A stretch of 64,000 bases of DNA from a virus. A program made the position numbers and the translations under genes. This document shows, in pieces, positions 12,139-64,000 of this stretch (its first letter is position 1; each line of letters opens with the position of its first letter). The DNA lies in IMG/VR virus record IMGVR_UViG_3300002092_001375, positions 3,451 to 67,450 of that record; one strand, written 5' to 3'. The notes beneath the pieces were generated by a model that was given only the letters and a program-made list of their open reading frames with translations, was not told the DNA's origin and did not search any database.

Positions 12139-14124
<1,986 letters not shown>

Positions 14125-37068: not shown

Positions 37069-37413
37069 CTATCTCAATTTTCCATCATTGTAAATAATTG
37101 AAAGATTTTTTTTCGTAGTAGTACCATCAATACCGGTAGAAACTCCTATTCTATGATAATTATTATATCTCATTTTTATCTTATTGTGATAAACTAAAAT
37201 AGGATCCTGAGAAAAAATTTCCCACGATTTTTCACTATCAAATTCTATAACAGTAATACTTTTCATGTTATCATCACTAATAGTAGTATTGTATGAAAGA
37301 ATAAGATTAGATTTTATATAAACTTCGTCAATATAATTATGAATATCGTCGTCGCTTATAAAAAATTCTGTTGTATCTTGTTGTTTTATAGATATTATTT
37401 GTATTTTAAACAA
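37069..37413 (-). CDS. hypothetical protein
   Basis: 114 aa ORF overlapping upstream gene end. Confidence 0.55.
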   Translation of the reverse strand: MFKIQIISIKQQDTTEFFISDDDIHNYIDEVYIKSNLILSYNTTISDDNMKSITVIEFDSEKSWEIFSQDPILVYHNKIKMRYNNYHRIGVSTGIDGTTTKKNLSIIYNDGKLR

Positions 37414-38338
37414 TAAAGTTTTCTTTTTCTTTTATTTGAATAAAGTCTTTTGTAACTAATATACAACTTGGAAGTATAGTATCGTTATGAGATATCCAAT
37501 TAAATGGTTTAGACATATCTAATCCTTTACCTATACAAATCCAAGGTCTTGGAATAAAATTATCAACTGTATATGTTCCGTATTTTATATGTAAAGTGTC
37601 TTCAACTCTAGCAATTCTAGGATCAAAATAATTTAATACATTACAAAATGCTAACTGATAACCTTTTGAAATTGCTAACAATCCAATTTTAGAATATAAT
37701 CTTCCCATATTAAACCAATAATTTGTATCAAATTCTGTCGGAGGAACACTAATTAATAAAGGAGCATTCATTTGAGGTGCTTTAATGTCACCGTTCTTTT
37801 CTCCCATTGTTTCCCAATATATTGCTAATGCATAAATTTTCTTTCTTATTTCTTGATCAGTAATCATAATTTTATAACCAGGATTATTCTCTAATAGGAA
37901 TTGATCAATCATACTACTAATTTCAAAGAAAGTTTCTTCATCTACATTACTATTAAAATCAAAACTTCTGTGAGCATGTTTTAAAGTTTGTTGTTTAACA
38001 GTATTAAAATCGCCATCGATATCTCCCTGCAATACTATAAATTCTACATATTCTTCATTATTTGTTATTTTATAATCAATATTACTTTCTTTTAAAACAC
38101 ATTCTAAACTTCCAACTGCAAGTCCAATATGCTGCCATTTTTCAAAAGTATGAATATGAGTTGGCATGAATATTTCATCTTCTCGTCTCGGATCTAATGA
38201 TAAAAATTTATCAGTTGGAGTAAATTTTAGTCGAATTGAATCATCTAAAATTGAAATATCACATCCATAATACGTCCTTCCGCAACGGCAAGGTGCAAGA
38301 TATAACGTTTTTTCGATTGCTCTAAGTAATGCTGACAT
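37406..38338 (-). CDS. nitroreductase-fold protein (putative)
   Basis: HAHRSFD, PQMNAPLLI, GLLAISKGYQLAFC resemble flavin nitroreductase fold; AAGGAG SD and GATAAATA motif at 38360-67. Confidence 0.5.
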   Translation of the reverse strand: MSALLRAIEKTLYLAPCRCGRTYYGCDISILDDSIRLKFTPTDKFLSLDPRREDEIFMPTHIHTFEKWQHIGLAVGSLECVLKESNIDYKITNNEEYVEFIVLQGDIDGDFNTVKQQTLKHAHRSFDFNSNVDEETFFEISSMIDQFLLENNPGYKIMITDQEIRKKIYALAIYWETMGEKNGDIKAPQMNAPLLISVPPTEFDTNYWFNMGRLYSKIGLLAISKGYQLAFCNVLNYFDPRIARVEDTLHIKYGTYTVDNFIPRPWICIGKGLDMSKPFNWISHNDTILPSCILVTKDFIQIKEKENFIV

Positions 38339-38362
38339 ATTGAAACTCCTTGTATTTTTTAT

Positions 38363-39232
38363 TTATCTATATTGTTTATTGCGATCCAGCATTAAAAATT
38401 TTAAAAAATACGCAATCGGCGCACTAGTATCAATTTCCCACCATTTAAATCCTAAATCAATTGCTCTAGGTCGACTATGGTGATTATTTTGAAGCAACCC
38501 ACTGAATATACCTAGAAAAATATAATGTAATATTAAATTATTATTTGAGTCATCGACTGTATTCTTAAGTCGATAACTTAATGGAAAATCTTTAATATGA
38601 CATAACCCAGCACATGCCATGCCCAAAACAATTATAAATCTCCCAAGCAAGATTATTTTAAATAAAATAATTGGTGCTATAAAATACAATGTAATTAAAG
38701 TAGCTATTGATAAAGATATTGAGTATTCTTCACAAAATTGTGTCCATTTGTCGTTTATTAATCTAGAACTAGTTTTTACTCCTGTCCTAATAACCTTATT
38801 AACATCAGGAATTTGAAAATTACAAAGAAACTCTATAGGTAATGTTATTGCCGATCCAAACCAAAATTCTTTAAAATTGACATTATCTGCTTTTCCTTGA
38901 TCTGCATATATGTGATGTGCTGGATGCCAAATACACAAGTATCGTACAGGACCATGAGATTGATTTACCGAACATAAAAATGTTAATATTTTATATGTTA
39001 TACTATCAACATTGATTGGAAATACCGCATGAGAACAAATTCTATGTGCAAAAGTTTCTTCAATAGTTATTATATATATTGTGGCTAATAATAACCAGTA
39101 CCATTGATTTTGAATATCCATAATTGAATCGAAAAACTCATATCCGCCAATAAATATCATTGAAAATACCAAAATAAGTCTAACAATGATTTGTAATTTA
39201 TTTTTTTGATATAACTTAATATTATCCATCAT
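38363..39232 (-). CDS. membrane fatty-acid desaturase family protein
   Basis: His boxes HRICSH, HPAHH, QNNHH; WWEID; several TM segments. Confidence 0.85.
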   Translation of the reverse strand: MMDNIKLYQKNKLQIIVRLILVFSMIFIGGYEFFDSIMDIQNQWYWLLLATIYIITIEETFAHRICSHAVFPINVDSITYKILTFLCSVNQSHGPVRYLCIWHPAHHIYADQGKADNVNFKEFWFGSAITLPIEFLCNFQIPDVNKVIRTGVKTSSRLINDKWTQFCEEYSISLSIATLITLYFIAPIILFKIILLGRFIIVLGMACAGLCHIKDFPLSYRLKNTVDDSNNNLILHYIFLGIFSGLLQNNHHSRPRAIDLGFKWWEIDTSAPIAYFLKFLMLDRNKQYR

Positions 39233-39266
39233 TGATATTTATGTTAAAATAAAATTAGAAAAAAAT

Positions 39267-39354
39267 TAAGTGATAAATTACTATATACAAAAAGGATAGA
39301 ATTATGAAAGTAAGTGATAAATTACTATATACAAAAAGGATAGAATTATGAAAG
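39267..39354 (+). repeat. perfect 44-bp tandem duplication of promoter motif, SD and start codon
   Basis: taagtgataaattactatatacaaaaaggatagaattatgaaag at 39267-39310 and 39311-39354. Confidence 0.92.
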
Positions 39355-40415
39355 TTAGTAAAATACCTGGCCTTGGAAGATTTGGAATCTTTATTGATGA
39401 TGTAAACTTTGAACACCTCACAGACGAAGAGTGGACCGAGATCGGTAAACTACATCTACAGAATTTCGTAACCATCATTAGAAACTGTAATCTAAACTGG
39501 GAAAAACAGGCCGAATGGTGTATGAAGTGGGGAGATACTCGCTATGGTATACGTTATCTAATTCTAAAGAAATATCCTGGCAAGTCTTGGTCACAAGTGG
39601 TACAGCTTTCTCTAAAGGATGATCCTAGTATCGACCCTATTGATCGTTTAAGGTTACAAAATATAGCTCGAATGCAGCAAGTTAGTCCAGAAGGACGCCA
39701 TGTAATGCGAGTCACAGGCAAGCGAGATGCCGAAGGTAATGCGCTTGGCATGTTTGCTGAAGGTGAACTTCTTTGGCATTCTAATGAGAGTGGAACGCTA
39801 ACAGCCACACCCGGAGTTGCCTTATTAGCAGCCGAGAACGTAGTTGGATCTGCTACAGGGTTTATTACCACTCCAGACTATTATGAATCAGTAAGTAATG
39901 CCTTTCGTAGTGAACTCGATGAGATGACATTGATACATCGCTTTACTCCTGGCAAGATTAATCCTGGGCTTAGGATAGAACAAGATGAGGTTATGCACGC
40001 CAATATGTGCCCAGAAGATGATGCCGAGATTCCTATGATCATGCGTAGCCCTGGCGGAACGTTAGGTCTACACTATAGTATCAATACAGTACATAGTATC
40101 AAAGGAATGAGTAAAGTAGATTCCGATAAAGTGTTTGATGCCATTAACAAAGAGCTGTTTACTGAGAAATATATATATGATCATTGGTATAAGAATAACG
40201 GGGACTTCTGTCTATTTGATAATTCTATAACACTACATCGCAGATTGGGAGATATCAAAGACAGACTTTGCTATCGTATCCAACACGACTATTCCAATCT
40301 CCAAGACGGATTCTGGCAACCATATCTCCAAGAAGATTTTGCCAAACTCTACGAGGAAGAAATCAAATACTATGTAGAATTAGCAGGTATTAAAGGTTTT
40401 AAATTACCAAAATGA
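39348..40415 (+). CDS. TauD/TfdA-family Fe(II)/2OG dioxygenase
   Basis: ELLWHSNE, ATGFITT, YDHWY...GDFCLFDNSITLHRR, R..YRI. Confidence 0.8.
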   Translation: MKVSKIPGLGRFGIFIDDVNFEHLTDEEWTEIGKLHLQNFVTIIRNCNLNWEKQAEWCMKWGDTRYGIRYLILKKYPGKSWSQVVQLSLKDDPSIDPIDRLRLQNIARMQQVSPEGRHVMRVTGKRDAEGNALGMFAEGELLWHSNESGTLTATPGVALLAAENVVGSATGFITTPDYYESVSNAFRSELDEMTLIHRFTPGKINPGLRIEQDEVMHANMCPEDDAEIPMIMRSPGGTLGLHYSINTVHSIKGMSKVDSDKVFDAINKELFTEKYIYDHWYKNNGDFCLFDNSITLHRRLGDIKDRLCYRIQHDYSNLQDGFWQPYLQEDFAKLYEEEIKYYVELAGIKGFKLPK

Positions 40416-40966
40416 AAATTTTATGCACAGGGAATCCTAAAAAAGGTATTGCTAAAGAAATTTGTAATCTATTCCCTAATGCTGATTTTATTTCTAGAAC
40501 AAACGGATATGATTTAAACTCTATTAATGGTCAAGAAGATTTTAAAAATATAATATCAAATTATGATGTTTTTATAAATCATAGCCAACTAGACATCGGT
40601 GTTCAAATAAAATTATTAGAATATACTAATAATGCATGGGATAAAGGTATTGTTATTAATATCGGTAGCATAATTGAATTTCCTAAATGGGAATGGATAG
40701 ATTTAGAAGCAGCAATTGATAAAAGAAAATTAAGAGATTTAAGTTTAAACTTGATAAATGAGAATTTTAAAACTAGTTATCTAATTTTAGGAGGTTTAAT
40801 TTCTGATTGTGCAGTTGAATATTTAGATCCTTTACGGATTTATCCTTCAAAAGTAGCTAATATAATAAAATGGATTTTAGAAAATGACCTCGATATTCCA
40901 TTAATTTATATTGATAAAATGTCAGATAAATTATCTAATTTTTGGTTGGATAAAAAAACCTCATGA
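40412..40966 (+). CDS. short-chain dehydrogenase/reductase-like protein
   Basis: ILCTG...GIA, DVFIN, VINIGS; catalytic Tyr not evident (AAIDK). Confidence 0.6.
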   Translation: MKILCTGNPKKGIAKEICNLFPNADFISRTNGYDLNSINGQEDFKNIISNYDVFINHSQLDIGVQIKLLEYTNNAWDKGIVINIGSIIEFPKWEWIDLEAAIDKRKLRDLSLNLINENFKTSYLILGGLISDCAVEYLDPLRIYPSKVANIIKWILENDLDIPLIYIDKMSDKLSNFWLDKKTS

Positions 40967-41613
40967 ATAATCAAAAACTTTATTATTTTTCTGATGCAAA
41001 ATTTTTGAAACTCGATATTTCGATACCACATGAAGAAATTTTAGAAGAATGTAAAAAATTAAAAAATAGATTCACCAATCATAGAGGAAATTCCCACAAT
41101 GGATGGAAAAGTCTTTCTTTATACGGATTAGCTGAGAATAAACACGAAAGCTGGCAAGACTATAACTACAGTTCAGCTATTGAAGCAGCTAAAGACTTTG
41201 TTTGGACAACTGCTGCTGATGATTGTCCTATAACTGTTAATTGGTTAAAAAATAATTTCCCTTGTCAAAGGTTTGGAAGAGTTAGATTTATGCTAGTTGA
41301 AGCAGGAGGGCATATAGGATTGCACTCCGATACAAAATATAGAATATTAGAAAATATAAACATATCAGTAAGTAATCCAAAAAATTGTATTTGGCAATGG
41401 GGCGACGGAGAGGAATTATTTATGGAGCCCGGAAATGCCTATGCAATGAATATTAGCTACGAACACGCAGTGTATAATAGAAGCAATGAAGATAGATTTC
41501 ATTTAATTGTAGCAAGACATGATTCAACTTTAGAGTGGCAAAAACTTATCAATGATGCTGCTAAAAAATCTAATATTGTTGGGCATTACGAACAACACGA
41601 AATCGCTGTTTAA
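40963..41613 (+). CDS. Asp/Asn beta-hydroxylase-like Fe(II)/2OG oxygenase
   Basis: RVRFMLVEAGGHIGLHSD, EHAVYN...DRFHLIV. Confidence 0.85.
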   Translation: MNNQKLYYFSDAKFLKLDISIPHEEILEECKKLKNRFTNHRGNSHNGWKSLSLYGLAENKHESWQDYNYSSAIEAAKDFVWTTAADDCPITVNWLKNNFPCQRFGRVRFMLVEAGGHIGLHSDTKYRILENINISVSNPKNCIWQWGDGEELFMEPGNAYAMNISYEHAVYNRSNEDRFHLIVARHDSTLEWQKLINDAAKKSNIVGHYEQHEIAV

Positions 41614-43037
41614 CCTAATATTTTAGAACTTGCCCAATCGTAAATATGCCATGGTAGTTTCGTTAGTTGATTTATATCTGTTAAATTAAATTCTTCGACT
41701 TTACCAAATAATTTCCGTTCAGACTGATAATACCCGTCGGATGCTCGAGATGTCATCATTAATGTAATATTTGGATCTTTATTTTTTAATTTTAATAATA
41801 AACTATTTTCACAACTTATACGATATTTCAAACTCTGAGTGGCAATATATGGACAATGTGTAAAGACGTCACTAAGATTTATAATTGTATTTTTTCCTGC
41901 TAAAAGCCAATTAAAATCGTATTCTGACATATAATCTATTAAAATAAAATCAAAATTTATTTTTTTAACTTTATTCCAAATGTTTGTCCAATCGTTTTCT
42001 TCTATAAATTTTTCCCACTCTCTTTTCGTATAATCAATATAAGCATCAATATCACGATCAAAACTACTAGGCAAAACAGGCATGTGCTTACGATAAAATT
42101 CAGGATAATCTTTTCCATCCCATTCTGTTACTAATAATTTCATAAATTGTAAACAATTATAATTGATATCAGTAAATATTACTTTAGTATCATCAGTTAT
42201 GCCAATATTACAAATGTTTGTTGCCCAATATAACCCAATGCCTACAGTCACGTATTGTTCTACAGGCCCATTATAATCAATTTTTTTCTTAAATGTATCA
42301 CTATTCCACGAAGAATAAAAATTATTACAGAAAAATTGATTATAATATATTTTAGATAGTCTTTTAAGAAATACATGATCATATTCGTAATATAGATAAT
42401 ATTTGTTATCTCTTATTTTACTTCCTACATCTATTAATATCTTATTATTTTTGAGTGCTACAGAAATAATATTCCATCCGTGGCATTTCATTTCATATTT
42501 TTTTTCTTTTGTACCCGAAATTATCCATTTTGCTATTTCGTCATCATTATATAATTTTTCATTACTTCTTATTGGTTCAATTTGAATATGTTCTTCACTC
42601 TTTTGTGAACCAATAAATGGCTTATTAAGATCTAAATATTCTACCATGTTTACGATGTAAAATTGATGATGCAGTTCATAATACCCATTTTTCCAATAAG
42701 AATTTTCATTTCTTTCTAATATATGTCCAGATATAAAGAAGTCTTGCTGACATATTTCTTCGATTGCTAAAAAAATTCTATCAGATAATCCTAAATACGT
42801 ACCAGAAGAAACCACAACAGTATGCGTGTAGAAAATATCTAAACTAACTTTCTCTAATAACTTATCTTCATCTTTATCGATAAAAATATCAAAACCAAAT
42901 GATTTAAATCTATGAATTAAAAAATCTGTTATATTAATTGAAATTTCTCTAGCCCAATTACTTTGACATAATGAATGATTATCAACAATACAACATGCTA
43001 TACGTTTCTTTTTTTCTATACTAAATTCCATTACCAT
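41610..43037 (-). CDS. hypothetical protein (possible transferase)
   Basis: 475 aa; GHIL...YYELHHQFYIVN; no motif assigned confidently. Confidence 0.7.
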   Translation of the reverse strand: MVMEFSIEKKKRIACCIVDNHSLCQSNWAREISINITDFLIHRFKSFGFDIFIDKDEDKLLEKVSLDIFYTHTVVVSSGTYLGLSDRIFLAIEEICQQDFFISGHILERNENSYWKNGYYELHHQFYIVNMVEYLDLNKPFIGSQKSEEHIQIEPIRSNEKLYNDDEIAKWIISGTKEKKYEMKCHGWNIISVALKNNKILIDVGSKIRDNKYYLYYEYDHVFLKRLSKIYYNQFFCNNFYSSWNSDTFKKKIDYNGPVEQYVTVGIGLYWATNICNIGITDDTKVIFTDINYNCLQFMKLLVTEWDGKDYPEFYRKHMPVLPSSFDRDIDAYIDYTKREWEKFIEENDWTNIWNKVKKINFDFILIDYMSEYDFNWLLAGKNTIINLSDVFTHCPYIATQSLKYRISCENSLLLKLKNKDPNITLMMTSRASDGYYQSERKLFGKVEEFNLTDINQLTKLPWHIYDWASSKILG

Positions 43038-43594
43038 TTTGGGTATCTCGCTAAATCGTCCGAAAATTTATCAGGAAATAATTCCCAAACCGTTTGATTT
43101 GTTGAACGATAATAAACTTCTTTAATCTGTTTCATTATACCTTTTCTTTCTAAAGCGGGTCCAAAAATAGTATGAACTTTTTTTTGAGTTCCAACTTCAT
43201 TTTTATTTGTAGTTATGTATAATCTAGCATTCTGTGGAGCCCAATTTATACATGTTGGTATTAAAAATTGAGATGTTGGATTCTGATGTTTGGTAATCAC
43301 ACTTATGGTTCTCAATGCTGTATTATAATTATCGGATAGTTTGTCAGTAAATACACACGTACGGGCCGCGATCCTAAAACTATTTTCTCCCATAACATCA
43401 TCAAAACTATGTACTGCCACACTACCAACTGCACTATTGTTATAATATAAAATCCAAACTTTCCAATGTTTTTCATTTTTAAAACAGTCTATCATATTTT
43501 TTTGAGAGGAATTATTCATAAATCCTCTTGCAGCAGCATCTTTATAAAATTCTTCTAAATTTAATTCATTAGACCAAGGGATTATATTATACAT
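43031..43594 (-). CDS. GNAT-like protein
   Basis: WILYYNNSAVGSVAVH, FRIAARTCV, LYITTN. Confidence 0.5.
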   Translation of the reverse strand: MYNIIPWSNELNLEEFYKDAAARGFMNNSSQKNMIDCFKNEKHWKVWILYYNNSAVGSVAVHSFDDVMGENSFRIAARTCVFTDKLSDNYNTALRTISVITKHQNPTSQFLIPTCINWAPQNARLYITTNKNEVGTQKKVHTIFGPALERKGIMKQIKEVYYRSTNQTVWELFPDKFSDDLARYPKW

Positions 43595-44268
43595 TTTACC
43601 TTCTCGATAAATTCTTTTGGATAATTAGTTCTAAAACTTTCCCAACAAAGATTTTCAAGTACATTAAAAGTTTGTGGTTCGTACCAATCTATATTCAAAG
43701 ATGTTGTATATCTCTGCATTTCCAATTTTCTATTATCACTTAAATGACTTTGATGTTCAGCTATAGTGATTGGGCCTTCATTTTCTAAATATGTAAAAAA
43801 ATAATTAATACTTTTAAGCCGTCCGTTGACTATAAAATAACTACTAGGATGCATAGAAAATTTATACCATCGATTATCCTTATGTGCTTTTATAATTCTT
43901 AACATTTGATCTTGCCAATCTGATAAAATTAAATCAAAACTACATGATTTATCTAAACTCTGTTGCCAAAAATCAACACCGTCAATTTTTAAATATATTT
44001 TAAAATTTAAAAAATCTATATCTAATATTTCCGGAACCATGTCGGGGTTGTGCAATGCCATATCTTGTAAAAAATGTAATTCTCGTTGCCATTTAATATA
44101 CATAAGTTCTGGGTCTACTACTTGATTTTTTCCTTTATGATAATCACTATCATTAACATAATGCTGCACAAAAACCTTTTTATCTTCGCTTATCAAACTT
44201 GTATAAATTAAATTATTTCTCCAAGGCGTATTACCCGGAACTTGATTATAATAATAGTTATAATTCAT
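43582..44268 (-). CDS. protein kinase/phosphotransferase-like fold protein
   Basis: RELHFL...VPEILDID...KIYL, KFSMHPSSYF, LKSINYF; paralog of 49054..49716. Confidence 0.5.
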   Translation of the reverse strand: MNYNYYYNQVPGNTPWRNNLIYTSLISEDKKVFVQHYVNDSDYHKGKNQVVDPELMYIKWQRELHFLQDMALHNPDMVPEILDIDFLNFKIYLKIDGVDFWQQSLDKSCSFDLILSDWQDQMLRIIKAHKDNRWYKFSMHPSSYFIVNGRLKSINYFFTYLENEGPITIAEHQSHLSDNRKLEMQRYTTSLNIDWYEPQTFNVLENLCWESFRTNYPKEFIEKVKCII

Positions 44269-44286
44269 TCTTACCTCTTGCAGATA

Positions 44287-44302
44287 TAGTTATCAATAAG
44301 TA
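44287..44302. promoter_or_regulatory. back-to-back late-promoter-like motifs (GATAACTA on -, AATAAGTA on +)
   Basis: Divergent intergenic region; 44287-94 minus, 44295-302 plus. Confidence 0.5.
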
Positions 44303-44328
44303 ATAAAGTTAGGAATAATTTAGATAAA

Positions 44329-44403
44329 ATGATTAAGTGGTTTAAAATTTTATTTTCACGATTATTAAAAAAAAAGAAAAAACCACCGTTTATTTATTGG
44401 TAA
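44329..44403 (+). CDS. 24-aa basic peptide MIKWFKILFSRLLKKKKKPPFIYW
   Basis: ATG 44329 to TAA 44403, first ORF after the late-type motif; below ORF-track length cutoff. Confidence 0.5.
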   Translation: MIKWFKILFSRLLKKKKKPPFIYW

Positions 44404-44418
44404 TATGAAAGAATTATT

Positions 44419-48026: not shown

Positions 48027-48041
48027 TGTTTGGTAAAATTA

Positions 48042-50383: not shown

Positions 50384-50388
50384 AAAAA

Positions 50389-50419: not shown

Positions 50420-50423
50420 AAAT

Positions 50424-55628: not shown

Positions 55629-56680
55629 TTTATTACCTGATCATTAATACTTATAAATGGACTATCGAGACTACACATTATTATACAAGCACTACTTGAT
55701 CGTTCTTTCCATTTTTTTTGCCAAGTTTGTTGCCATTCTTCAGTTTCTATAATAGATTTTAAACTTTGTTCTAATACATTAAATTTAGTAAAACCTAATA
55801 CTTGTTCCTGAACTTTCTTACCTTCTTCAATTATACTATTATCTTCACCAAGTAAATTTATATCATAATTTGTATATAAAAAAGATCCAATTATACAACA
55901 AGGACTCAATAAGTAATTTGCATCAATATATAGCTCTTTATCGCAAAAACTTTCACATTTAATTTTATCTGCATTTGGCCAATTTTGATGCATTTGTAAA
56001 TTTTTTTTATCTATAGGTATAATTAGGCTGTCTTTCGGTTGCTCAATATGATAGATAACATCGCCTTTCCTATTAACAACCGGAAAAGGTTTACTAAATC
56101 TCTTACTATTTTTTAATACAAATGATTTAAACCCTAACTCTTTAGATAATTTTTCAGCTTGTAAAATTTGATAATCGTTGTGTTGAAATCTAATAAAACT
56201 CCACTCAGCGTTTCCTCCAGAATCAATAAATGATGTTGCATTTAATATAATTTTATTATAATCTGTACCTATTCTATGATAGCTATGTGTATCACGTAGT
56301 CCATCGATCCCAAAAACAACTTTATGATTTAATGGCATTTCTAATGCCAATCTACTCCACCATTCTTTTGATCTTGTGCTTCCATTTGTAAAAATTAAAA
56401 CTTCTAAATTAGGATTTATTTCTTTTATATATTTTATCATAGAAATTAAATCATTATTCATAGTTGGTTCGCCGAAATCTCCACAAAAATTTAAATGATT
56501 AATTTGATTTAAAACTTCAACATTAATTATTTTAACAAAATCATCAAAAGACCAATTGTTAATTGTTAACAATGGGTTCTTAATTCCGCCATGAATATTG
56601 CGAGGACACATCGGACAACTAGCTTGACAATTATTTGTAATCTCTATTTGGATAGATTTTAATTGATTAAATTTAAACAT
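55625..56680 (-). CDS. radical SAM/SPASM enzyme
   Basis: CQASCPMC, CGDFGEP, FTNGS; C-terminal PCC...CIIMC. Confidence 0.9.
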   Translation of the reverse strand: MFKFNQLKSIQIEITNNCQASCPMCPRNIHGGIKNPLLTINNWSFDDFVKIINVEVLNQINHLNFCGDFGEPTMNNDLISMIKYIKEINPNLEVLIFTNGSTRSKEWWSRLALEMPLNHKVVFGIDGLRDTHSYHRIGTDYNKIILNATSFIDSGGNAEWSFIRFQHNDYQILQAEKLSKELGFKSFVLKNSKRFSKPFPVVNRKGDVIYHIEQPKDSLIIPIDKKNLQMHQNWPNADKIKCESFCDKELYIDANYLLSPCCIIGSFLYTNYDINLLGEDNSIIEEGKKVQEQVLGFTKFNVLEQSLKSIIETEEWQQTWQKKWKERSSSACIIMCSLDSPFISINDQVIK

Positions 56681-56685
56681 TTGAG

Positions 56686-57780
56686 TTATGCTATTATTGA
56701 ATTTCGTATCTCTATAAAATCATCTATATTTTTTGCTTTAGGAGCACACATACCACATCCGCATCGATTATTTGGGCAAATTATATTAGGAATTATTTCT
56801 TGATTAATCTTATTAGAAATTTCATTTAAAATTAAATCACTGTTAGATAAATTCCCAATTGGTCCTTTCTTTTTTTCAAGCAATGCCTTACATGTTTGAT
56901 GATGATAAACATCCTTAGTTTCTTGATCAATATATAGAAAAAACCAATCTATTAAACAATACCAATCTTTAAAAGAGGTATCGATTAAATTAATTGTTTT
57001 CCATTCTCCGTCTATCTTTCCCGATAAACATATTCCACCACAACATGAACGCCCCATTTGATTGCCTTCTAAACTATTATTAGATTTTTTATTAAATCCT
57101 TGTTGTTCCCAAAACCACTCTTGTTGTTCGGCTGTATATGTATGACTTGTTCTTCGATAAGAACCACCATCATCAATAAACCAACCTGTTCTAGTTATAG
57201 CACCATCACCGATTGGTCTTAATTTACATATGATTTTATTTTCATTTAACATCTCATATATGGATATACATTCATCCCAGTGATCCACATGCAGCATTAT
57301 ATTAACATGTAAATATTTTCCGCCTTGTTTTAATGCTAATATATTTTTTATAACTTGATCTTTTAATTTTTTATTAGCTTCGGCATGATAACTAACACTG
57401 ACTCCTCCAAAATTATCAATAATATTTTTTGTAAATCTCTCACTCCAGGCTCCGTTTGTATTTAAACTTAAACTTATATTGTTAGAAGTGTTATTAATGT
57501 GCTCTATTAAATTCCAAAAATTAGGATTAACTGTTGGCTCCCCACCGGTAAAATTAATATTTGTATTAATTGGTTCTTTTCGTTTAGAATTATATAAATC
57601 TGTATATTTCCAAATAAAATCAAATGTTTGTATTAATTCTTCTAAACTCCTATGATGACTATAATTATTGTGGCGAGTTGATTCACAATATGTACAATCA
57701 TAATTACATCGTCGCCCTGTGTCCCAAACTACACTAAACGTATTTTTATTTACATGTTTGATTGCTGTAGTCTTTATCAT
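56686..57780 (-). CDS. radical SAM/SPASM enzyme
   Basis: CNYDCTYC, FTGGEP, NTNG; CCGG, CPNNRCGCGMC. Confidence 0.9.
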   Translation of the reverse strand: MIKTTAIKHVNKNTFSVVWDTGRRCNYDCTYCESTRHNNYSHHRSLEELIQTFDFIWKYTDLYNSKRKEPINTNINFTGGEPTVNPNFWNLIEHINNTSNNISLSLNTNGAWSERFTKNIIDNFGGVSVSYHAEANKKLKDQVIKNILALKQGGKYLHVNIMLHVDHWDECISIYEMLNENKIICKLRPIGDGAITRTGWFIDDGGSYRRTSHTYTAEQQEWFWEQQGFNKKSNNSLEGNQMGRSCCGGICLSGKIDGEWKTINLIDTSFKDWYCLIDWFFLYIDQETKDVYHHQTCKALLEKKKGPIGNLSNSDLILNEISNKINQEIIPNIICPNNRCGCGMCAPKAKNIDDFIEIRNSIIA

Positions 57781-58853
57781 AATATTTTCTTATCTATAAA
57801 TTGATCCATTGGTTTACTTAGTTTATTAACACCGCATGTTCTTGCACAAGTTATCATTTTTGTATCATTCCAATATTTTTCCCAAATTGTTTGATATATA
57901 TCACTGTCAATTATAGATTGTAATGTATTCTGTGTCGCATCTAAAAAATTAATACCACCGAAATCTTTAATTAAGTTATTATATTGTAATATCATTTCTT
58001 GTCTAATACTAGCAATTTTATCCGAAGACTTAGAATAATTATAAGGTATACTTGCAATCCAACAACACGGAAATACTCGCCCAAATGCATCGATATAAAC
58101 TTCACGCAACTTCTGTGCATAACAAATTATATCACTTTCGTCTACTATATTTTTATAATTTTCAATTATATCTTGATTTATAAAAACAATATTACTGTTA
58201 TCTGATGGTTCTAAGTAATGAGTAATATTATTATTTTTATCATATACAGGAAATTTAAAATCAATCAAAAATCTACTACTATCTTTAAGTGTAAAAACTT
58301 TAAATCCTAAATCCATTGCTATTTCTTTAGCAGATTCTACTTCATGTTCATTATGTTTAAATCTTATAAAAGTCCAATCGGCATTTCCGCCGGCTTCGAT
58401 AAAAGCAGTGGCATTTCTTTGAATTTGAAAATAATCGGTACCTTGTCTATATAAACTATGTGTATTTTCAAGTCCATCTATAGCAAATACTACCATATGA
58501 TTTTCAGGTAAGGAGTTAGCTAATTCTTTCCACCAAGACTCATTTCGAGCACTACCATTTGTATGTATTCTAACATTTATCAACGATGCGTTTTCTTTTA
58601 CGTACCTACACATTTTAATTAAATCAGAATTTATGATAGGATCACCAAAATTTCCACAAAATACTATAGTTTTAATCTGGTTTAATACTTCATGATTTAT
58701 TATAATTTTAAATTTTTCAAATGACCAAGTGTTGAGTTTTAATAAAGGATTATCTAATCCCCCATGATAATTTCTACTACACATTGGGCAACTTGCTTGA
58801 CAATTATTTGTGATTTCTAAATGTACTTGCGATAATTCGGTAAATTTAAACAT
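57777..58853 (-). CDS. radical SAM/SPASM enzyme (paralog of 55625..56680)
   Basis: CQASCPMC, CGNFGDP, HTNGS; FPCCW...CARTC. Confidence 0.9.
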   Translation of the reverse strand: MFKFTELSQVHLEITNNCQASCPMCSRNYHGGLDNPLLKLNTWSFEKFKIIINHEVLNQIKTIVFCGNFGDPIINSDLIKMCRYVKENASLINVRIHTNGSARNESWWKELANSLPENHMVVFAIDGLENTHSLYRQGTDYFQIQRNATAFIEAGGNADWTFIRFKHNEHEVESAKEIAMDLGFKVFTLKDSSRFLIDFKFPVYDKNNNITHYLEPSDNSNIVFINQDIIENYKNIVDESDIICYAQKLREVYIDAFGRVFPCCWIASIPYNYSKSSDKIASIRQEMILQYNNLIKDFGGINFLDATQNTLQSIIDSDIYQTIWEKYWNDTKMITCARTCGVNKLSKPMDQFIDKKIL

Positions 58854-59439
58854 TACGAAATCCTATAATCATATATCTTGTATATAATTGTGTAGGCATT
58901 TCGCCCTCCCAAATAATTTTTAAATGGCTTTCTTTTTTAAATTCATCTAATGATGCATGACACCGTATATGTTCTGGAATATTATAATTATTACTTTGCA
59001 ATATAATTAAACTATTAGTTGACAAATTATTTAACCATAAATTATATTGATTTTGAGTAATGTGCTCACAACTAGTATTAATAATTATATCAGCCGAAGA
59101 GCCTATATCACACATATCAGCAGTTATGGCTTCAAACCTTCCATTCATTTCTTCAATTTTATTAACAGTATTTGCGGTTTCTTTACAATTTGGATCTATA
59201 TCAATTGATTTTATATTATTGGTATCAATCGATGATTGAAATAATAAACTAGCCAATACACCATTCCAGCCTCCATATATTGTAATATCAACTTTTTTAG
59301 AAATAAATGGTTTAAGATTATCAATCAACCATAATTTGCTCCTTATTTGTCCTTTCCAAAAACTTTCTAGAGTTCTTATAGGATCTCGACTGTTGCGAAT
59401 AGCATCCATCCAAAACAACACATGTTCTATATCAATCAC
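58846..59439 (-). CDS. class I SAM-dependent methyltransferase-like protein
   Basis: IYGGWNGVLA motif I, SIDIDP, IINTSCEH. Confidence 0.7.
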   Translation of the reverse strand: MIDIEHVLFWMDAIRNSRDPIRTLESFWKGQIRSKLWLIDNLKPFISKKVDITIYGGWNGVLASLLFQSSIDTNNIKSIDIDPNCKETANTVNKIEEMNGRFEAITADMCDIGSSADIIINTSCEHITQNQYNLWLNNLSTNSLIILQSNNYNIPEHIRCHASLDEFKKESHLKIIWEGEMPTQLYTRYMIIGFRNV

Positions 59440-60197
59440 AATTCTAATTTCCTTGCTATAAGTTCTGCTATGTTTTTATTGGTATTTTTACCCTGATGCA
59501 TAAGATCCCTGCCAGTGTCAATAATTTTAATAAGGTCACATTCTATATATGCTGCTGTTTCAAGAAAAAAACTCGCTTCATAATATTTGGTTTTATTATC
59601 CCATATCTGTCTTGCTAATATTGCTGTAAATACTAGATGTGTTTTTGGATTGCTGTAATCTGCTGTCCAAGAATCAAATAAATTACCTTTCGTCATATTC
59701 CACGAACCTAAATTTTTAATATTATCACTTTCATAAAAAGTACATCGACTCGAGTCAGTCCATAAATGTACTATGCCTTTAGGAGTAGGATAACCATTAC
59801 GTAATATTATAGAATTATGGAGAGAAAAAATAGTCGAAGATCCACCGGCACCTAAATTAATAACAGGTCTACCTATTATCTTTTCTAATTGATTACTGAT
59901 CGTATGCTCATCATCTATTCCTATCCCAAATACATAAGAACAACCAAAAATTACTACCGATTCTGCCCAATCGATATCTTCAAATTCTTTACATCGATAA
60001 TGATGTTTATTAACTGTGTAAGTTACTTTATTATGTCTATAATACCAATCATTAGGTAATTTCTTTAGATTTTTTTTAAAAAGAGATTCCGAGTCTGATC
60101 CCGTAAAATTATTTACTAGAGTATCTTTTGGTAAAAAGATATTTTGTTTTATTTTTTTAATAATATTTTGTCTATCTCTTCGAAGTAAATCGATCAT
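59436..60197 (-). CDS. SGNH hydrolase-like protein
   Basis: IFGCSYVFG, NLGAGGSS, RDLMHQG. Confidence 0.7.
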   Translation of the reverse strand: MIDLLRRDRQNIIKKIKQNIFLPKDTLVNNFTGSDSESLFKKNLKKLPNDWYYRHNKVTYTVNKHHYRCKEFEDIDWAESVVIFGCSYVFGIGIDDEHTISNQLEKIIGRPVINLGAGGSSTIFSLHNSIILRNGYPTPKGIVHLWTDSSRCTFYESDNIKNLGSWNMTKGNLFDSWTADYSNPKTHLVFTAILARQIWDNKTKYYEASFFLETAAYIECDLIKIIDTGRDLMHQGKNTNKNIAELIARKLEL

Positions 60198-60239
60198 AAA
60201 ATTATTTCCTTCATCATGTTAATACTCTAATATCTATTT

Positions 60240-61007
60240 TCATAATTGTAATTTTTTAGCTATATTAACAGCTAGTTTATAATTTGCTTGTATTCCTGGA
60301 TGTTTTAAATCTCTGGCACGATCTACTTTACGTATCCAATCACACTTGAGAAGTTTAGCCACATCTTTCCAATAACTGGCTTCATAATACTTTGTATCTT
60401 GCCATAATAATTTACTTGTCATACTAGCTAATACAGCATGACATTTGCCGTGTACTAGGTCTGTAGTCCATTTATCAGCATAACTGTTAGGAGTCATATT
60501 CCAAGGACCCCCATGGTGAAGATTATTTTTATAATAATATGTAGAACGATCAGGCGATGTCCATAAATGAACGATTCCTTTAGGAATTGGATATCCATTT
60601 CTAAGTATTATTGAATTATGTAAAGAATACATCATAGATGTACCTCCCATCCCTAAATTAATTACAGGAATTCCAACGATTTTATTTAATTGAGAAGCTA
60701 GAGTATCAGCATCGTCTACCCCGTCACCAAATACGTGCGAACATCCAAAAATTACTACAGATTCTGCCCAATCAATTTCATTAAAGTTATAAGTTCTATA
60801 TCCGTGGTTATTTAATTTATAGTTAACAAGATTTGTTCGATAATGCCATTTCTTTGGTTGTGTTAATAAATTTTGTTCAAATAATTCTTTAGTATCAGTT
60901 CCTGAAAATTCTAAGGTGGTATTTCCAGCTGATGGTAAAAACGTATTAGTTTTTACTAATTCAAGGATCGTGTTATTTTGTTTTTTAAATAGGTCCAATA
61001 TTGACAT
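60240..61007 (-). CDS. SGNH hydrolase-like protein (tandem paralog)
   Basis: IFGCSHVFG, NLGMGGTS, RDLKHPG; shares IDWAESVVIFGCS and LRNGYP.PKGIVHLWT with neighbour. Confidence 0.7.
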   Translation of the reverse strand: MSILDLFKKQNNTILELVKTNTFLPSAGNTTLEFSGTDTKELFEQNLLTQPKKWHYRTNLVNYKLNNHGYRTYNFNEIDWAESVVIFGCSHVFGDGVDDADTLASQLNKIVGIPVINLGMGGTSMMYSLHNSIILRNGYPIPKGIVHLWTSPDRSTYYYKNNLHHGGPWNMTPNSYADKWTTDLVHGKCHAVLASMTSKLLWQDTKYYEASYWKDVAKLLKCDWIRKVDRARDLKHPGIQANYKLAVNIAKKLQL

Positions 61008-61028
61008 TTTTAACTGCTCCGACAGAAA

Positions 61029-62042
61029 TTATTTTTTATTAAAAATTTTTCGTTTAGGCATATTTGCTTCAAAATCACACCAACACCTAGATGTATGACA
61101 TATTGTTTTAGTGATAATAGGTTGAAATTTTTCTATAAAATTTAAATCATATAAATTATATTTTATCGATTGATTATATAACATATTTCCGCATATACCT
61201 TCTATACTGCCGTCGGCTTTTATATCTAACCAATCTTTTCCTACATTACATTCCCAATCTTCAAAATTGTTTAATCGATTCAAAGTTAAAAATTTTTCAT
61301 CAATCTTATGCGTTTTATATTGATTATCTACAACTTTGGTCTTTGACATCGGAATCTTATTATTCCAAAGAAAGAAAAAAGGATTAGTACTTCTCGATCG
61401 TGATTTTTTTAAAAGTTCAGTTTGTTCAGATGTATATTTGATATTATCATGAAATATTTCTGCATATCGTATAGACCATTTATAGCTACTTTGTAAATAA
61501 TAATTATTTGCTTCTAAACAACGGTCCCAGGCAGCAGTATCCATCATTATATTAACATCAACCATTTTTCCTTTTGAATACAAATAATCAGCTACTTCTC
61601 TAATATGTTCTTTTCTAGAGAATTGGGAATGGTGGCTAATAGAAACACGATCAAAATAAGGAGTTGCCTCTATCCACCAATCCATCTTTTTAGATGCATT
61701 TGTATTCATAGTAAACAAACAATCATAATTTTTTTTAAAATGTTTAATAAAATCAATAAGTTTCTTCCAATGGGTTACTTCTCCTCCAACTAACCCTATC
61801 TGAAATTTTTTCTTATTTGTATGGGTTTTATAATAATCTAATAAATGAGAAAGATTGGCTATTAATATATCATAATCTGGCCATTTTTTATCGCCCTCAT
61901 TACATCCAGGCCAGCAATACCAACATTGATAATTACAAATATTGCCCAAGTGGAGCTCTACTCGAAAAAAATTATCTGGCCAATTTTGTTTAACTTCAAC
62001 TATTTCCACTTTGGTACCTTTGAATCTGCTGAACTTATACAC
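61029..62042 (-). CDS. radical SAM/SPASM enzyme
   Basis: CNYQCWYC, VGGEVT, NTNAS; CNVG...GIC...CHTSRCWC; start uncertain. Confidence 0.88.
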   Translation of the reverse strand: MYKFSRFKGTKVEIVEVKQNWPDNFFRVELHLGNICNYQCWYCWPGCNEGDKKWPDYDILIANLSHLLDYYKTHTNKKKFQIGLVGGEVTHWKKLIDFIKHFKKNYDCLFTMNTNASKKMDWWIEATPYFDRVSISHHSQFSRKEHIREVADYLYSKGKMVDVNIMMDTAAWDRCLEANNYYLQSSYKWSIRYAEIFHDNIKYTSEQTELLKKSRSRSTNPFFFLWNNKIPMSKTKVVDNQYKTHKIDEKFLTLNRLNNFEDWECNVGKDWLDIKADGSIEGICGNMLYNQSIKYNLYDLNFIEKFQPIITKTICHTSRCWCDFEANMPKRKIFNKK

Positions 62043-62974
62043 GTATTAGTTATACATTTTTCTACTTTATTAAAAATTTCAAAACCTTCTGTTAAAGTAC
62101 CTAAGATTTTATCTGAGCAACTATAACTTCTTTTAACCTCATTACTACGAATTATAATACTTTGATATCCACTACTACATGACCATCCGTTAAATTTATT
62201 AAATCCAAAAGCATTAAATCTTTCTGCCTGATCAAAATCATACTTATTACCTTTACTATCATATAATAGGATTTGATTAAAAGGTTGCGTAAATCTTGTC
62301 TGCATAATATCTAGCATTTCGTCTGTATAACTGCTAACTATAGCCGATGCTGTTTCATTACTTTGAGGTTTTAGTGTAACCGGAATTCCTCTATCATAAA
62401 ATCTTTGGCACCTAGCTAGATATTCAAAAAATTTTTCAGGAACCATAACTTGATTTATTGTAATAAAAATACCATTCTCTAGAAGATATAATAATTTTTC
62501 TGTAAATTGTTCTTCATCTGCAAACTCGGCATGAAAACTAGCAGTAATACTTGCTCGATTAAAAAGTTTCAACGATGGCATAATCTTTTGCCACCAACGC
62601 ATACTTGGACTACAATTACTAGTCATATGAAAACTTTGATATGACAACATTTCGTTTGCATAATATTTTATTAAATCATTAAATCTTTTATAAGCAGTAG
62701 GTTCTCCACCACTAAAACTAAAATGAAAATTAGTAAATCCGTTTTCTCTTGCTTGTTTTTTTATTTCGTCGATAGTATTTGTATAAATTTTAAATTCTTG
62801 ATAATCTAGGATATTACTCCTAGCATAAGGCCAGCAATAGCTACAATTATAATTACAAAAACGTCCTAGTATCCAGCTAACAGAAAATAGATCAGAATCT
62901 AACATAGTCTTTTGACCGAAACTAACAATATCATCCCATGGTATATTCTGAAAATCAGTATTTTTTAAATTCAT
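62000..62974 (-). CDS. radical SAM/SPASM enzyme
   Basis: CNYNCSYC, FSGGEP; CSSG...YSC...CITNTCISSAD. Confidence 0.9.
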   Translation of the reverse strand: MNLKNTDFQNIPWDDIVSFGQKTMLDSDLFSVSWILGRFCNYNCSYCWPYARSNILDYQEFKIYTNTIDEIKKQARENGFTNFHFSFSGGEPTAYKRFNDLIKYYANEMLSYQSFHMTSNCSPSMRWWQKIMPSLKLFNRASITASFHAEFADEEQFTEKLLYLLENGIFITINQVMVPEKFFEYLARCQRFYDRGIPVTLKPQSNETASAIVSSYTDEMLDIMQTRFTQPFNQILLYDSKGNKYDFDQAERFNAFGFNKFNGWSCSSGYQSIIIRSNEVKRSYSCSDKILGTLTEGFEIFNKVEKCITNTCISSADSKVPKWK

Positions 62975-64000
62975 CTTCTAACCATTGCCAATCATTTATT
63001 TTAGATAACATTACTTTATTATCTACATATTTAAATCCAAATTCTCTACCTGCTATAGCACCTTTTATTGCATATTCCCCATATAATTGATCAATACCCT
63101 TGCTACACCACACGCTTAATCTATTAACTGTTTCTTGATCATCCTGCCCGTCAATAATCCTACTAGATAATTTTACACATTCTCTGAAAGCACTTTTCCA
63201 TGTATTAAACGGATCCGTATTAAAGACAGTTATATTACTAATATGTGTTATTGGTTTAAACCTGGTGCTTATTGACGTTGTCATATCTACCGAATTTACA
63301 TCCATATTTTCTGTTAAATATTTCGGCAATAGCTTAACTCCTCCATATCCGTATGAAAGATCATTGATAGGGTTTTTACTTTCCCACACATGTACAATAT
63401 CTCTTTCATATCGAGTGACTATATAACTAAAATCAAAATTATTCACTATCTGAGCATCACCATCGACTACCCAAAACATTTCAGTTTCTGCTATTTTAGC
63501 AGCAGCGATGTGTGCTTGATGTATGCCTTTAACATTATGAATTCTTTTAACTCTTGGAAATTGATCTTTTAATCTATTGTAATTTTCTTCAGCATTGGGT
63601 TCATTATAACTAATAAAAACAATGTCATACAATGAGTTTTTAGATGCAGGAATGCTGTGCTCTTTTCTTTCTAATAAAATTCTATATTCAATTTCTCGTT
63701 TCGATATAATTTTCTTTTTTGATAATAGTTTTATCCCTTCGTAATTTTCTTCATTCATAAAAATATTTTTAAATGCATGGTTAATCGATCTATCATATAT
63801 ATTACTGTGTTCAAAATAATAATTAGAAAAACTAAATGTTTCGAGGACATCGATTTCTTTTGGAATAACCCAGAACATCTCTGTTTTTGTATTTTGTAAT
63901 GCTTCTAGATATTCTTCATAAGAATCAATAGTAAAAATATCATAAACTACTGGTACTGTTGCGACGATATCCCATTCTTTCCTCGATATAGGAAATCTAT
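62955..64000 (-). CDS. GT-A-like glycosyltransferase with repeated domain (5' partial; extends beyond window)
   Basis: Frame is open to window end; DIVFISYNE, GIHQAH, FWVVDGD (DxD), YGYGGVKL; TEMFWV occurs twice. Confidence 0.7.
   Translation of the reverse strand, partial: RFPISRKEWDIVATVPVVYDIFTIDSYEEYLEALQNTKTEMFWVIPKEIDVLETFSFSNYYFEHSNIYDRSINHAFKNIFMNEENYEGIKLLSKKKIISKREIEYRILLERKEHSIPASKNSLYDIVFISYNEPNAEENYNRLKDQFPRVKRIHNVKGIHQAHIAAAKIAETEMFWVVDGDAQIVNNFDFSYIVTRYERDIVHVWESKNPINDLSYGYGGVKLLPKYLTENMDVNSVDMTTSISTRFKPITHISNITVFNTDPFNTWKSAFRECVKLSSRIIDGQDDQETVNRLSVWCSKGIDQLYGEYAIKGAIAGREFGFKYVDNKVMLSKINDWQWLEDEFKKY

Follow-up and report, generated by a model that had tools for sequence, protein, structure and literature searches.

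In aquatic T4-type myophages, host-recognition clusters (HRCs) have been described as large, hypervariable islands that lie beside tail-fibre genes and contain glycosyltransferases, which Zaragoza-Solas et al. (2020) read, in pelagi- and cyanomyophages, as a means of host O-chain modification. According to the portions of that paper available to us, these clusters are non-syntenic and under-recruited in metagenomes, radical S-adenosylmethionine (SAM) proteins are reported from their marine members, and an Asp/Asn beta-hydroxylase belongs to the core shared by all (PMC7029224). Here we describe an island of this type in the IMG/VR virus record IMGVR_UViG_3300002092_001375, of which we analysed bases 3451–67450 (64,000 nucleotides, hereafter the window; the contig measures 67,450 bp and has a CheckV completeness of 15%). 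The island starts at position 37069 of the window, where a fibre gene (35715–37046) abuts it, and extends into the contig end, its far end lying outside the view. HRCs differ from it in being defined, in the text available, between VrlC and gp14 in genomes of ~140–200 kb; the island described here consists mostly of radical SAM enzymes and Fe/2-oxoglutarate (Fe/2OG)-type oxygenases, with one glycosyltransferase in view and no lipopolysaccharide (LPS) sugar-nucleotide genes, and its carrier belongs to a jumbo lineage with a polymerase nearest to those of Phosso, Atu_ph07 and Rak2-like phages. The locus is a hypervariable accessory island that matches the host-recognition-cluster kind of phage hypervariable region, and its radical SAM chemistry is potentially interesting.

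Another described relative is found in the Campylobacter phages CP220 and CPt10 (Timms et al., 2010), for which the available text reports 11–12 radical SAM genes without assigned function and, in CP220, a central "interchangeable" block (gp080–gp089) of five radical SAM genes beside two genes of the nucleotide-diphospho-sugar-transferase (GT-A) fold (PMC2853527). In our comparisons, gp080 and gp083 resembled island genes 55625 and 57777 (genes are named by their lower coordinate in the window) with 24–27% identity and E values of 1e-13 to 1e-15, and gp081 resembled 52526, 61029 and 62000 (E 2e-5 to 1e-4). CP220 differs from the island carrier in host and habitat and also in content, as it has no detectable enzyme of the N-terminal-twitch (N_Twi) radical SAM type, no Fe/2OG set and no glycosyltransferase homology detectable by BLAST, and has an amidinotransferase instead. 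The only cultured-phage counterpart that we found is in RsoM2USA (MG752970.1), a 343.8-kb Ralstonia jumbo phage in which genes 347–350 (locus L106, 8034–11746), annotated as hypothetical, encode adjacent glycosyltransferase, N_Twi radical SAM, glycosyltransferase and methyltransferase-like proteins. These represent three core families of the island, with identities of 31% and 42% for the glycosyltransferases, 23% for the radical SAM protein and 33% for the methyltransferase-like protein, but the module is a minimal one of four genes without the Fe/2OG, pyridoxal-phosphate (PLP), kinase and SGNH periphery. Virus-encoded GT-A enzymes are also a trait of known virion-glycosylation systems (PBCV-1 A64R, Mimivirus R699, mycobacteriophage); A64R, R699 and LH3 were among the Foldseek matches of the island glycosyltransferase, with a similarity at the level of fold only (TM 0.17–0.43). 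To our knowledge, radical SAM enzymes are not part of those systems. A literature search, which covered papers without their supplementary files, found none on the island, the N_Twi core, the N_Twi reaction or the link to Bdellovibrionota. As far as their available text goes, the "moraphage" paper deals with another lineage and does not contain the word "radical" (PMC12619734), and another paper describes a small trio of radical SAM, amidinotransferase and PLP genes in a cyanophage (PMC12801897).

The carrier of the island is an uncultured freshwater jumbo myovirus. Phage genes fill the first ~37 kb of the window, and the nearest cultured relatives of its family B DNA polymerase are jumbo myoviruses (Sinorhizobium phage Phosso, 49% identity; Agrobacterium phage Atu_ph07, 46%; Rak2-like coliphages, 43%). 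This core also contains a ThyX gene, an Mtd_N-type fibre gene, which is the one abutting the island, and, arrayed at 4000–14121, fibre genes that Pfam recognised as of the Gly_rich_2 and collagen types. Five successive genes with Pfam Gly_rich_2 occupy 4000–12124, a 974-aa member having three matched stretches, and a collagen-repeat fibre gene then follows. Matching sequences came from freshwater and lake metagenomes, and a genome size of ~350–450 kb can be inferred from completeness values of 15–46% for contigs of 67–163 kb. Megablast of both core and island gave no match among 50,697 phage records, and no tRNA genes that might serve as a host clue are present in the window. A Bdellovibrionota host was considered on the basis of gene sharing alone.

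The island is genuine phage DNA and not a chimeric host fragment. As the original prediction had stated, the block is AT-richer than the core (GC 0.28–0.33 in 36001–64000 vs. 0.36–0.51 in 1–36000), and a sharp GC step at ~37,050 (~0.40 to ~0.30), together with an island that reaches the contig end, is what would be expected had a low-GC foreign fragment been fused to a phage contig during assembly, the very outcome named beforehand as fatal to the proposal. However, the step at 37046/37069 is bridged by contigs assembled from other runs in three independent lake studies (X4, 36338–37509, with 1 difference; X5, 36292–39927; X8, 36912–37374), and read depth is alike on both sides of it in X4 and X5. 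Moreover, polymerase and island are linked on each of two related single contigs (G002 and G003), which carry polymerases 71–75% identical to that of the window and 9 and 11 radical SAM matches, respectively. As far as the island, G003 follows the window collinearly; in G002 the island is internal, at ~77–105 kb, with a ThyX-like gene on one side and an Mtd_N-fibre-like gene on the other. The counter-selection of the phage's own promoter motif inside the island, described below, also argues against a chimera, a reading that is refuted as far as contigs can show and that we regard as scarcely credible. Since the islands of G002 and G003 are only slightly AT-richer than their cores, the sharp GC step is a trait of this variant.

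Two sequence variants were noted at this junction and within the island. In one X5 contig, the match to the island begins at 37043 and the sequence to its left is unrelated, so that a variant phage has another gene upstream of an identical island start; this points to a recombination boundary where fibre gene and island meet, near 37043. In addition, a duplication listed here, which is single-copy in X4, X5 and X8 (the contigs skip 43–44 nt), reflects either a polymorphism between strains or an error of assembly.

39263–39359, plus strand: tandem duplication of 44 nt (2.2 copies, 96% match) covering the ribosome-binding site and start codon of the TauD-like gene 39348

Within the island, ~33 tightly packed open reading frames (ORFs) are arranged in seven alternating strand blocks. 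The longest has 475 aa and Pfam scans gave no match to nonribosomal peptide synthetases or polyketide synthases, in line with the earlier statement that no such scaffold is in view. Nine radical SAM genes had been claimed (45177, 51268, 52526, 54243, 55625, 56686, 57777, 61029 and 62000); all nine scored above the Pfam Radical_SAM (PF04055) cut-off of 29.5, with 29.6–53.1 bits, and a whole-contig scan detected exactly these nine. Every one contains a CX3CX2C motif and at least six further cysteines; extra cysteines had been described as SPASM/Twitch-like in eight of them. The Pfam SPASM model (PF13186) was significant for 51268 alone (35.6 bits, N-terminal), and NF033640 (N_Twi_rSAM; cut-off 170 bits), a subfamily model without assigned reaction, has only 51268 (326.5 bits) and 54243 (377 bits) as full-length members, the other seven scoring 30–44 bits or being unlisted. 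In both of these proteins, the auxiliary cysteines of the N-terminus precede the SAM motif. The nine proteins fall into four groups: the N-terminal-twitch enzymes (51268, 54243), the pair 55625/57777, four proteins whose extra cysteines cluster at the C-terminus (52526, 56686, 61029, 62000) and 45177, which has a zinc ribbon of the HMPTM type and also gave partial NCBIfam matches to Tes and TrsS. When the N_Twi profile was compared with the Protein Data Bank (PDB), no close solved relative emerged, and its matches to CteB (4e-8), SkfB, YydG, Tes, MoaA and, weakly, BlsE covered only the common radical SAM core.

45177–46220, plus strand: radical SAM with N-terminal HMPTM-type zinc ribbon (Pfam Zn_ribbon_HMPTM 55 bits, Radical_SAM 53.1 bits)
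51268–52533, plus strand: N-terminal-twitch radical SAM (NF033640); Pfam SPASM at residues 9–69, Radical_SAM also matched
52526–53422, plus strand: radical SAM with C-terminal Cys cluster (Pfam 43.1 bits), paralog of 56686, 61029 and 62000
54243–55628, minus strand: N-terminal-twitch radical SAM (NF033640), core gene; ATAAGTA 26 nt upstream
55625–56680, minus strand: radical SAM (Pfam 29.6 bits), paralog of 57777 (42% identical); identity of 25–27% to gp083 and gp080 of CP220
56686–57780, minus strand: radical SAM with C-terminal Cys cluster (Pfam 38.2 bits)
57777–58853, minus strand: radical SAM, core gene (Pfam 31.5 bits)
61029–62042, minus strand: radical SAM with C-terminal Cys cluster (Pfam 30.5 bits)
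62000–62974, minus strand: radical SAM, core gene (Pfam 47.9 bits)

Gene neighbourhoods were compared on related phage contigs, and all 14 viral loci found with 54243 (41–82% identity for this protein) carried orthologs of many island genes in shuffled order. With a limit of E ≤1e-10, 54243 had 3380 homologs, the longest contig with one of them measuring 342 kb, and a protein identical to 54243 is encoded on a contig of 199 kb; tblastn of this protein against phage records hit only 4 of them, at 22–30% identity. Between 9 and 15 radical SAM matches were counted in each of five related records, and no homolog of 37406, 38363, 44419, 45177 or 53355 was present in the retrieved relatives. A five-part core could be recognised, consisting of a tandem GT-A transferase, a Rossmann methyltransferase-like protein, the N-terminal-twitch radical SAM enzyme and two further radical SAM subfamilies; it recurs in the 14 viral loci. 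The syntenic triad 50424-51268-52526 was found in 8 of the 14 viral loci. In a scan of 185,579 species genomes, 79 cellular loci were kept. Of these, 65 are labelled Bdellovibrionota; their contigs reach 3 Mb in length, and one isolate is among them. The 54243-like gene was accompanied in these 79 loci by a 57777-like gene (44 loci), a 62000-like gene (43 loci, 45–50% identity), a 58846-like gene (29) and the glycosyltransferase (24). The flanks of nine loci of the Bdellovibrionota type contained GT2 glycosyltransferases in 6 of 78 ORFs, together with SecY, adenylate kinase and like housekeeping genes.

Several further observations were made on these relatives. Bdellovibrionota chromosomes (among L028–L105; e.g., L103) contain tandem arrays in which the N_Twi radical SAM gene is present in as many as five or six paralogous copies, and similar arrays occur under other labels in L070 and L072. 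Four loci binned into metagenome-assembled genomes of Crocinitomicaceae, Rickettsiales, Dojkabacteria and Neisseriaceae (L027, L072, L073 and L074) carry island genes at 38–62% identity, L073 also having homologs of the phage replication module; they are probably phage contigs mis-binned into those genomes. Finally, at ~31.8–38.9 kb of G003, a radical SAM gene, two small cupin genes and a 50424-like PLP gene lie among homologs of window genes 23897–26829, a presumed 7-deazaguanine cluster; this insertion could reflect either a functional link or merely another insertion site.

The glycosyltransferase and the methyltransferase-like protein complete the core.

58846–59439, minus strand: Rossmann-type, methyltransferase-like protein at motif level (alignment A9 invariants), core gene
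62955–64000, minus strand: GT-A-fold glycosyltransferase, core gene, cut by the contig end

The earlier assignment of 62955 as a glycosyltransferase was borne out by fold and by Pfam Glycos_transf_2 in its homolog L078 (29.8 bits vs. a cut-off of 23.3). Full-length homologs are tandem GT-A proteins with a conserved DGD motif (D362, alignment A13). The model of one of these (L074; 59% identical to 62955, predicted local distance difference test (pLDDT) score of 85) matched in Foldseek two-domain glycan-building enzymes such as K4 chondroitin polymerase (K4CP; 4e-7), Mimivirus R699 (1e-5) and LH3 (1.6e-4), and its C-terminal domain reached Z 11.7 to B4GALNT1 (VIA). For 58846, Rossmann-like motifs agree with the methyltransferase call, but comparison of the family with PDB profiles gave no significant match.

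Eight Fe/2OG-type oxygenases had been claimed, of which three are firm, four are supported by profile comparison and one is a lead.

39348–40415, plus strand: TauD/TfdA-family Fe/2OG dioxygenase (Pfam TauD 58.2 bits vs. cut-off 27)
40963–41613, plus strand: Asp/Asn beta-hydroxylase-family Fe/2OG oxygenase (Pfam Asp_Arg_Hydrox 56.9 bits vs. cut-off 22.6)
46217–47017, plus strand: 266-aa conserved protein, possible Asp/Asn-hydroxylase-like oxygenase (lead), invariant HRD...H
47014–47529, 47529–48026 and 48030–48563, plus strand: three tandem small cupin paralogs (alignment A2, HxD...H)
48537–49106, minus strand: fourth small cupin paralog (alignment A2)
49709–50383, minus strand: Fe/2OG beta-hydroxylase of Cpz10/proline-hydroxylase type (profile A6 vs. 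7v4f, Cpz10, E 2.3e-20; 4p7w, E 7e-8); ATAAATA 12 nt upstream of its ATG at 50383

The firm members are 39348, 40963 and 49709. The four small cupins share an invariant HxD...H, the basic residue after the distal His varying among them, and hhalign relates them to the 49709 family with 84% probability (E 7e-6). Orthologs of 46217 are 46–75% identical, and the Atlas links it with a score of 0.96 to a cluster of viral Asp_Arg_Hydrox proteins; no PDB profile matched it, hhalign gave no significant match to either of the two cupin families and tblastn against phages found nothing. TauD-family enzymes mostly act on small molecules. Among solved structures, 49709 comes closest to the caprazamycin hydroxylase Cpz10, whose substrate, according to the available text, is an amino acid linked to uridine (PMC9814697). 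The coexistence of radical SAM enzymes with O2-dependent oxygenases had been presented as unusual in itself. That view does not hold when set against general knowledge of aerobic pathways, in which PqqE works with PqqC and Fom3 with HppE.

The remaining enzymes with recognisable folds or motifs make up the rest of the periphery.

38363–39232, minus strand: 289-aa membrane His-box protein, desaturase/hydroxylase-like; ATAAATA 10 nt upstream
40412–40966, plus strand: short-chain dehydrogenase/reductase (SDR) (profile A11 vs. PDB SDRs, best E 2e-14)
43582–44268, minus strand: small protein-kinase-fold kinase (profile A7: TTK kinase E 3.7e-5, Bud32-type kinase E 0.011)
44419–45180, plus strand: SGNH-like at motif level (alignment A10)
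49054–49716, minus strand: second small protein-kinase-fold kinase (member of alignment A7)
50424–51284, plus strand: PLP fold-type-I enzyme, aminotransferase class I/II-like (invariant SxSK, alignment A1; model pLDDT 70.7)
53355–54248, plus strand: SGNH-like at motif level (alignment A10)
59436–60197 and 60240–61007, minus strand: two SGNH-like paralogs, 49% identical (alignment A10)

Several assignments of the original prediction were sustained here: the PLP enzyme by its fold type I model and SxSK motif, the SDR by its PDB profile and the two kinase-like genes by the protein-kinase fold of A7 (E 4e-5). The model of 50424 resembles amino-acid aminotransferases and decarboxylases (Foldseek matches to BacF, TyrAT and CobD, E ~5e-7, TMq ~0.5), and homologs of the SDR occur in Bdellovibrionota clusters. 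Others stood in part. The four SGNH-like genes share an invariant GCS..N..G..D..H (A10), but their PDB profile matches were not significant; likewise, the desaturase call for 38363 agrees with its His boxes and with weak matches to phrog_35201 (E 5.5e-6) and NCBIfam DesA (E 0.001), the latter far below the family cut-off. PDB profile searches with the 50424 and cupin families also returned non-significant matches only.

The distribution of promoter-like motifs was then compared between core and island. T4-type late promoters consist of a TATAAATA-like element ~10–35 nt upstream of late genes. In the core, ATAARTA lies 17–34 nt before genes 908, 5010, 12148, 14149, 30113 and 35715, four of which (5010, 12148, 14149 and 35715) are fibre genes. 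Replication genes follow a different pattern, TTGAC-N16-19-TAYWMT (10 matches vs. 2.6 expected); these sigma-70-like sites lie within 748–36758 at 748, 16864, 19824, 22387, 28283, 30798, 31961 and 36730, mostly before replication-module genes. Together the two patterns suggest a T4-like split between putative early and late promoters. Inside the island, ATAARTA occurred 14 times vs. 50.1 ± 6.9 in dinucleotide shuffles, a 3.6-fold depletion (0 of 200 shuffles had fewer than 30), and six of the 14 copies stand at the heads of genes or in non-coding sequence, which amounts to a few hundred bases. Nine related islands behaved alike, with 30 copies vs. 174 expected; windows upstream of genes, although only 2.3% of positions, contained 12 of the 30. 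None of the island units is headed by the early-type pattern, its sole match in the island being intragenic, and a search of the island for generic sigma-70 promoters and terminators gave no excess over shuffles. In G002, the 22 ORFs behind ATAARTA include virion structural, head maturation protease and tail-spike/fibre-type genes, and none of the 10 ORFs behind the early pattern is structural. A search with the late-sigma-like (gp55-like) protein of CP220 by tblastn in the window, G002, G003 and four loci, all of them incomplete contigs, found nothing below E 0.46. The ATAARTA statistics support a functional element, and, given these and the absence of the early pattern from unit heads, the island follows the phage's own promoter grammar, probably its late part. 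The claim that island units start with the motif of the fibre genes thus stands as regards depletion inside and enrichment at heads, but not as a general rule, because an exact copy within 45 nt of the first gene was found at only two of the six visible unit heads, two others having it at ~125 nt and two lacking it.

As a function for the island, we tentatively favour the late-expressed tailoring of a sugar or glycoconjugate by the island genes acting as one pathway, to which we give slightly less than an even chance. The core would edit a sugar or sugar-linked small moiety by radical chemistry and transfer it to an acceptor, and the variable periphery, made up of small-molecule-type Fe/2OG hydroxylases, a PLP aminotransferase-like enzyme, two kinases, an SDR and SGNH-type esterases or acyltransferases, would add or remove hydroxyl, amino, phosphate and acyl groups. 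T4-late-like ATAARTA promoters would read the island, so that its products would be made together with those of the virion genes. Such a glycan or glycoconjugate is consistent with the tandem GT-A transferase and with the many GT2 genes around the cellular homologs, and the helper enzymes (the Cpz10-like 49709, TauD, the aminotransferase fold, the SDR and the kinases) appear to point to small-molecule chemistry. We infer the sugar as substrate class, the late timing and the unity of the pathway from these data, whereas the enzyme families, the phage ownership, the conservation and the motif statistics were observed directly. In comparison with the late-stage pathway decorating virion proteins or glycans that had been put forward, what persists is the phage DNA, the fibre-type motif and the agreement of a glycan with the GT-A and GT2 context; virion proteins, including the Gly-Pro-Thr or Gly-rich fibres, stand only as a possible target. 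Between virion fibres and host envelope as acceptor we slightly favour the former. A bolder version, which we hold to be quite improbable, would make the island a chemical host-range diversifier: radical SAM enzymes would rewrite sugars that the GT-A enzyme places late in infection on collagen-like or Gly-rich tail fibres, shuffling of tailoring genes, and not mutations in fibre genes alone, would alter virion binding, and Bdellovibrionota would use the core for an equivalent decoration of their surface.

A number of results weigh against sugar tailoring by a single late pathway. No nucleotide-sugar activating or dehydratase gene, and no flippase, polymerase or export apparatus, was recognised in 37069–64000, the part of the island in view before the contig ends; genes of this kind may be located past that end. 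The GT-A fold is shared by IspD-type cytidylyltransferases (Z ~10.5), the PLP fold matches amino-acid enzymes and not sugar aminotransferases, and 40412 is a classical SDR and not of the extended, sugar-nucleotide type. Regarding timing, the scarcity of close, exact ATAARTA copies at unit heads counts on the same side, as does the finding that one of the G002 genes behind the motif encodes a ribonucleotide reductase. Members of the island families lie within the presumed 7-deazaguanine cluster of G003. Last, gene order and content vary strongly among relatives and five genes lack a homolog there, so the genes may not form one pathway.

This variation is the basis of a distinctly unlikely alternative, namely that the island is a dump of independent mobile accessory genes (radical SAM, cupin and SGNH paralogs) with different targets. 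The shuffled order in all 14 related loci, the range of 9 to 15 radical SAM matches per record, the homolog-less genes and the insertion of the same families elsewhere (G003, 31.8–38.9 kb) would all be expected from it, as would the CP220 block, which Timms et al. term, in the available text, an interchangeable and probably non-essential module (PMC2853527). Against it, the five-gene core stays together across phages and Bdellovibrionota at 41–50% identity, the triad 50424-51268-52526 is syntenic in 8 of the 14 viral loci, and genes overlap tightly in operon-like units. If the genes do act together on glycans, the target could instead be the envelope of the infected cell, its LPS, O-chain or capsule being altered, perhaps so as to prevent superinfection. 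A role of this kind was proposed for the glycosyltransferases of the pelagimyophage HRC, the island type that comes nearest among those described, in the portions of the paper at hand (PMC7029224); cellular homologs beside GT2 genes in Bdellovibrionota must act on a cell component, and the glycosyltransferase fold matches polysaccharide polymerases (K4CP, heparosan synthases and hyaluronan synthases). However, all island proteins but the His-box protein look soluble, Pfam scans of the island ORFs recognised no transporter, flippase or undecaprenyl-linked enzyme, and late-type promoters would leave little time for a change of surface. We consider host-envelope remodelling unlikely.

Two other chemistries were weighed, both of which we think very unlikely. 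Hypermodification of DNA or nucleotides (by a 7-deazaguanine or thymidine pathway), or production of a nucleoside-type metabolite, would account for the radical SAM gene, two cupins and PLP-like gene inside the presumed DpdA/FolE/QueE-type cluster of G003, for the uridine-linked substrate of the nearest solved relative of 49709 (PMC9814697, available text) and for the weak BlsE match; in CP220, in addition, 11 radical SAM genes occur in a phage whose DNA is fully modified with 7-deazaguanine, as stated in the accessible parts of the sources (PMC2853527; bioRxiv 10.1101/2023.04.13.536721). The island nevertheless lies apart from the base-modification cluster of the window, its hits include no DNA-binding, base-exchange, base-activating (DpdA, hydroxymethylase plus kinase) or pyrophosphorylase-type family, and the Bdellovibrionota clusters neighbour GT2 genes and not DNA-modification genes. 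Moreover, at 27 kb the island far exceeds what known base-modification pathways use. Direct modification of a peptide or protein without a sugar, either as a ribosomally synthesized and post-translationally modified peptide (RiPP) or as side-chain chemistry on the virion, could be argued from the PDB profile comparison, in which the N_Twi family matched best the peptide-modifying enzymes CteB (4e-8), SkfB and YydG, from the Asp/Asn hydroxylase-family genes and from the collagen-like and Gly-rich fibre genes upstream. Those matches, however, span the common core alone and are no stronger than those to MoaA, Tes and BlsE, and the auxiliary Cys domain of the core enzymes is N-terminal. The RiPP alternative offered by the original prediction was further weakened: the sole small ORF is not conserved, and no RiPP recognition element (RRE) or PqqD-like domain, leader protease or exporter appeared among Pfam hits at E ≤0.01 for the 33 island ORFs, the nine radical SAM proteins included.

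Thousands of metagenomic proteins belong to these families, and the N_Twi radical SAM enzymes and their partners are without an assigned reaction. Should the core act on sugars, radical SAM carbohydrate chemistry would gain a new branch, and large aquatic phages and predatory bacteria would be seen to have a new way of varying a surface structure. Two culturable carriers, RsoM2USA and the Bdellovibrio isolate (L054), make the question testable. What the window adds is an AT-rich block proven to be non-chimeric, statistical evidence that this block obeys a late-type promoter grammar and a link to the radical SAM module of CP220.

The small ORF mentioned above lies behind a AATAAGTA motif. It was rejected as a precursor gene, its best tblastn match in the viral loci L001–L026 (E 0.013) being outside any island; the other intergenic gaps of the island are ≤42 nt or contain no ORF. 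No match in Pfam, PHROGs or NCBIfam was obtained for 37069, 37406, 41610, 43031, 44419, 46217, 50424, 53355, 58846 and 59436, not every ORF having been run against every one of these libraries. The "nitroreductase-like" label of 37406 and the "GNAT" (Gcn5-related N-acetyltransferase) label of 43031 thus found no support, the profile of the latter matching nothing in the PDB either. The protein 41610 belongs to a virus-only family with an Atlas score of 0.84 to a 688-aa Asp_Arg_Hydrox cluster, and it adjoins a 40963-like gene in L004 and L005.

37069–37413, minus strand: 114-aa ORF, no Pfam match
37406–38338, minus strand: 310-aa ORF, no homolog in the retrieved viral loci; ATAAATA 28 nt upstream
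44329–44403, plus strand: 24-codon ORF
43031–43594, minus strand: 187-aa conserved protein, orthologs 44–52% identical in relatives
41610–43037, minus strand: 475-aa protein of the virus-only family (Atlas clusters 94–97% viral)

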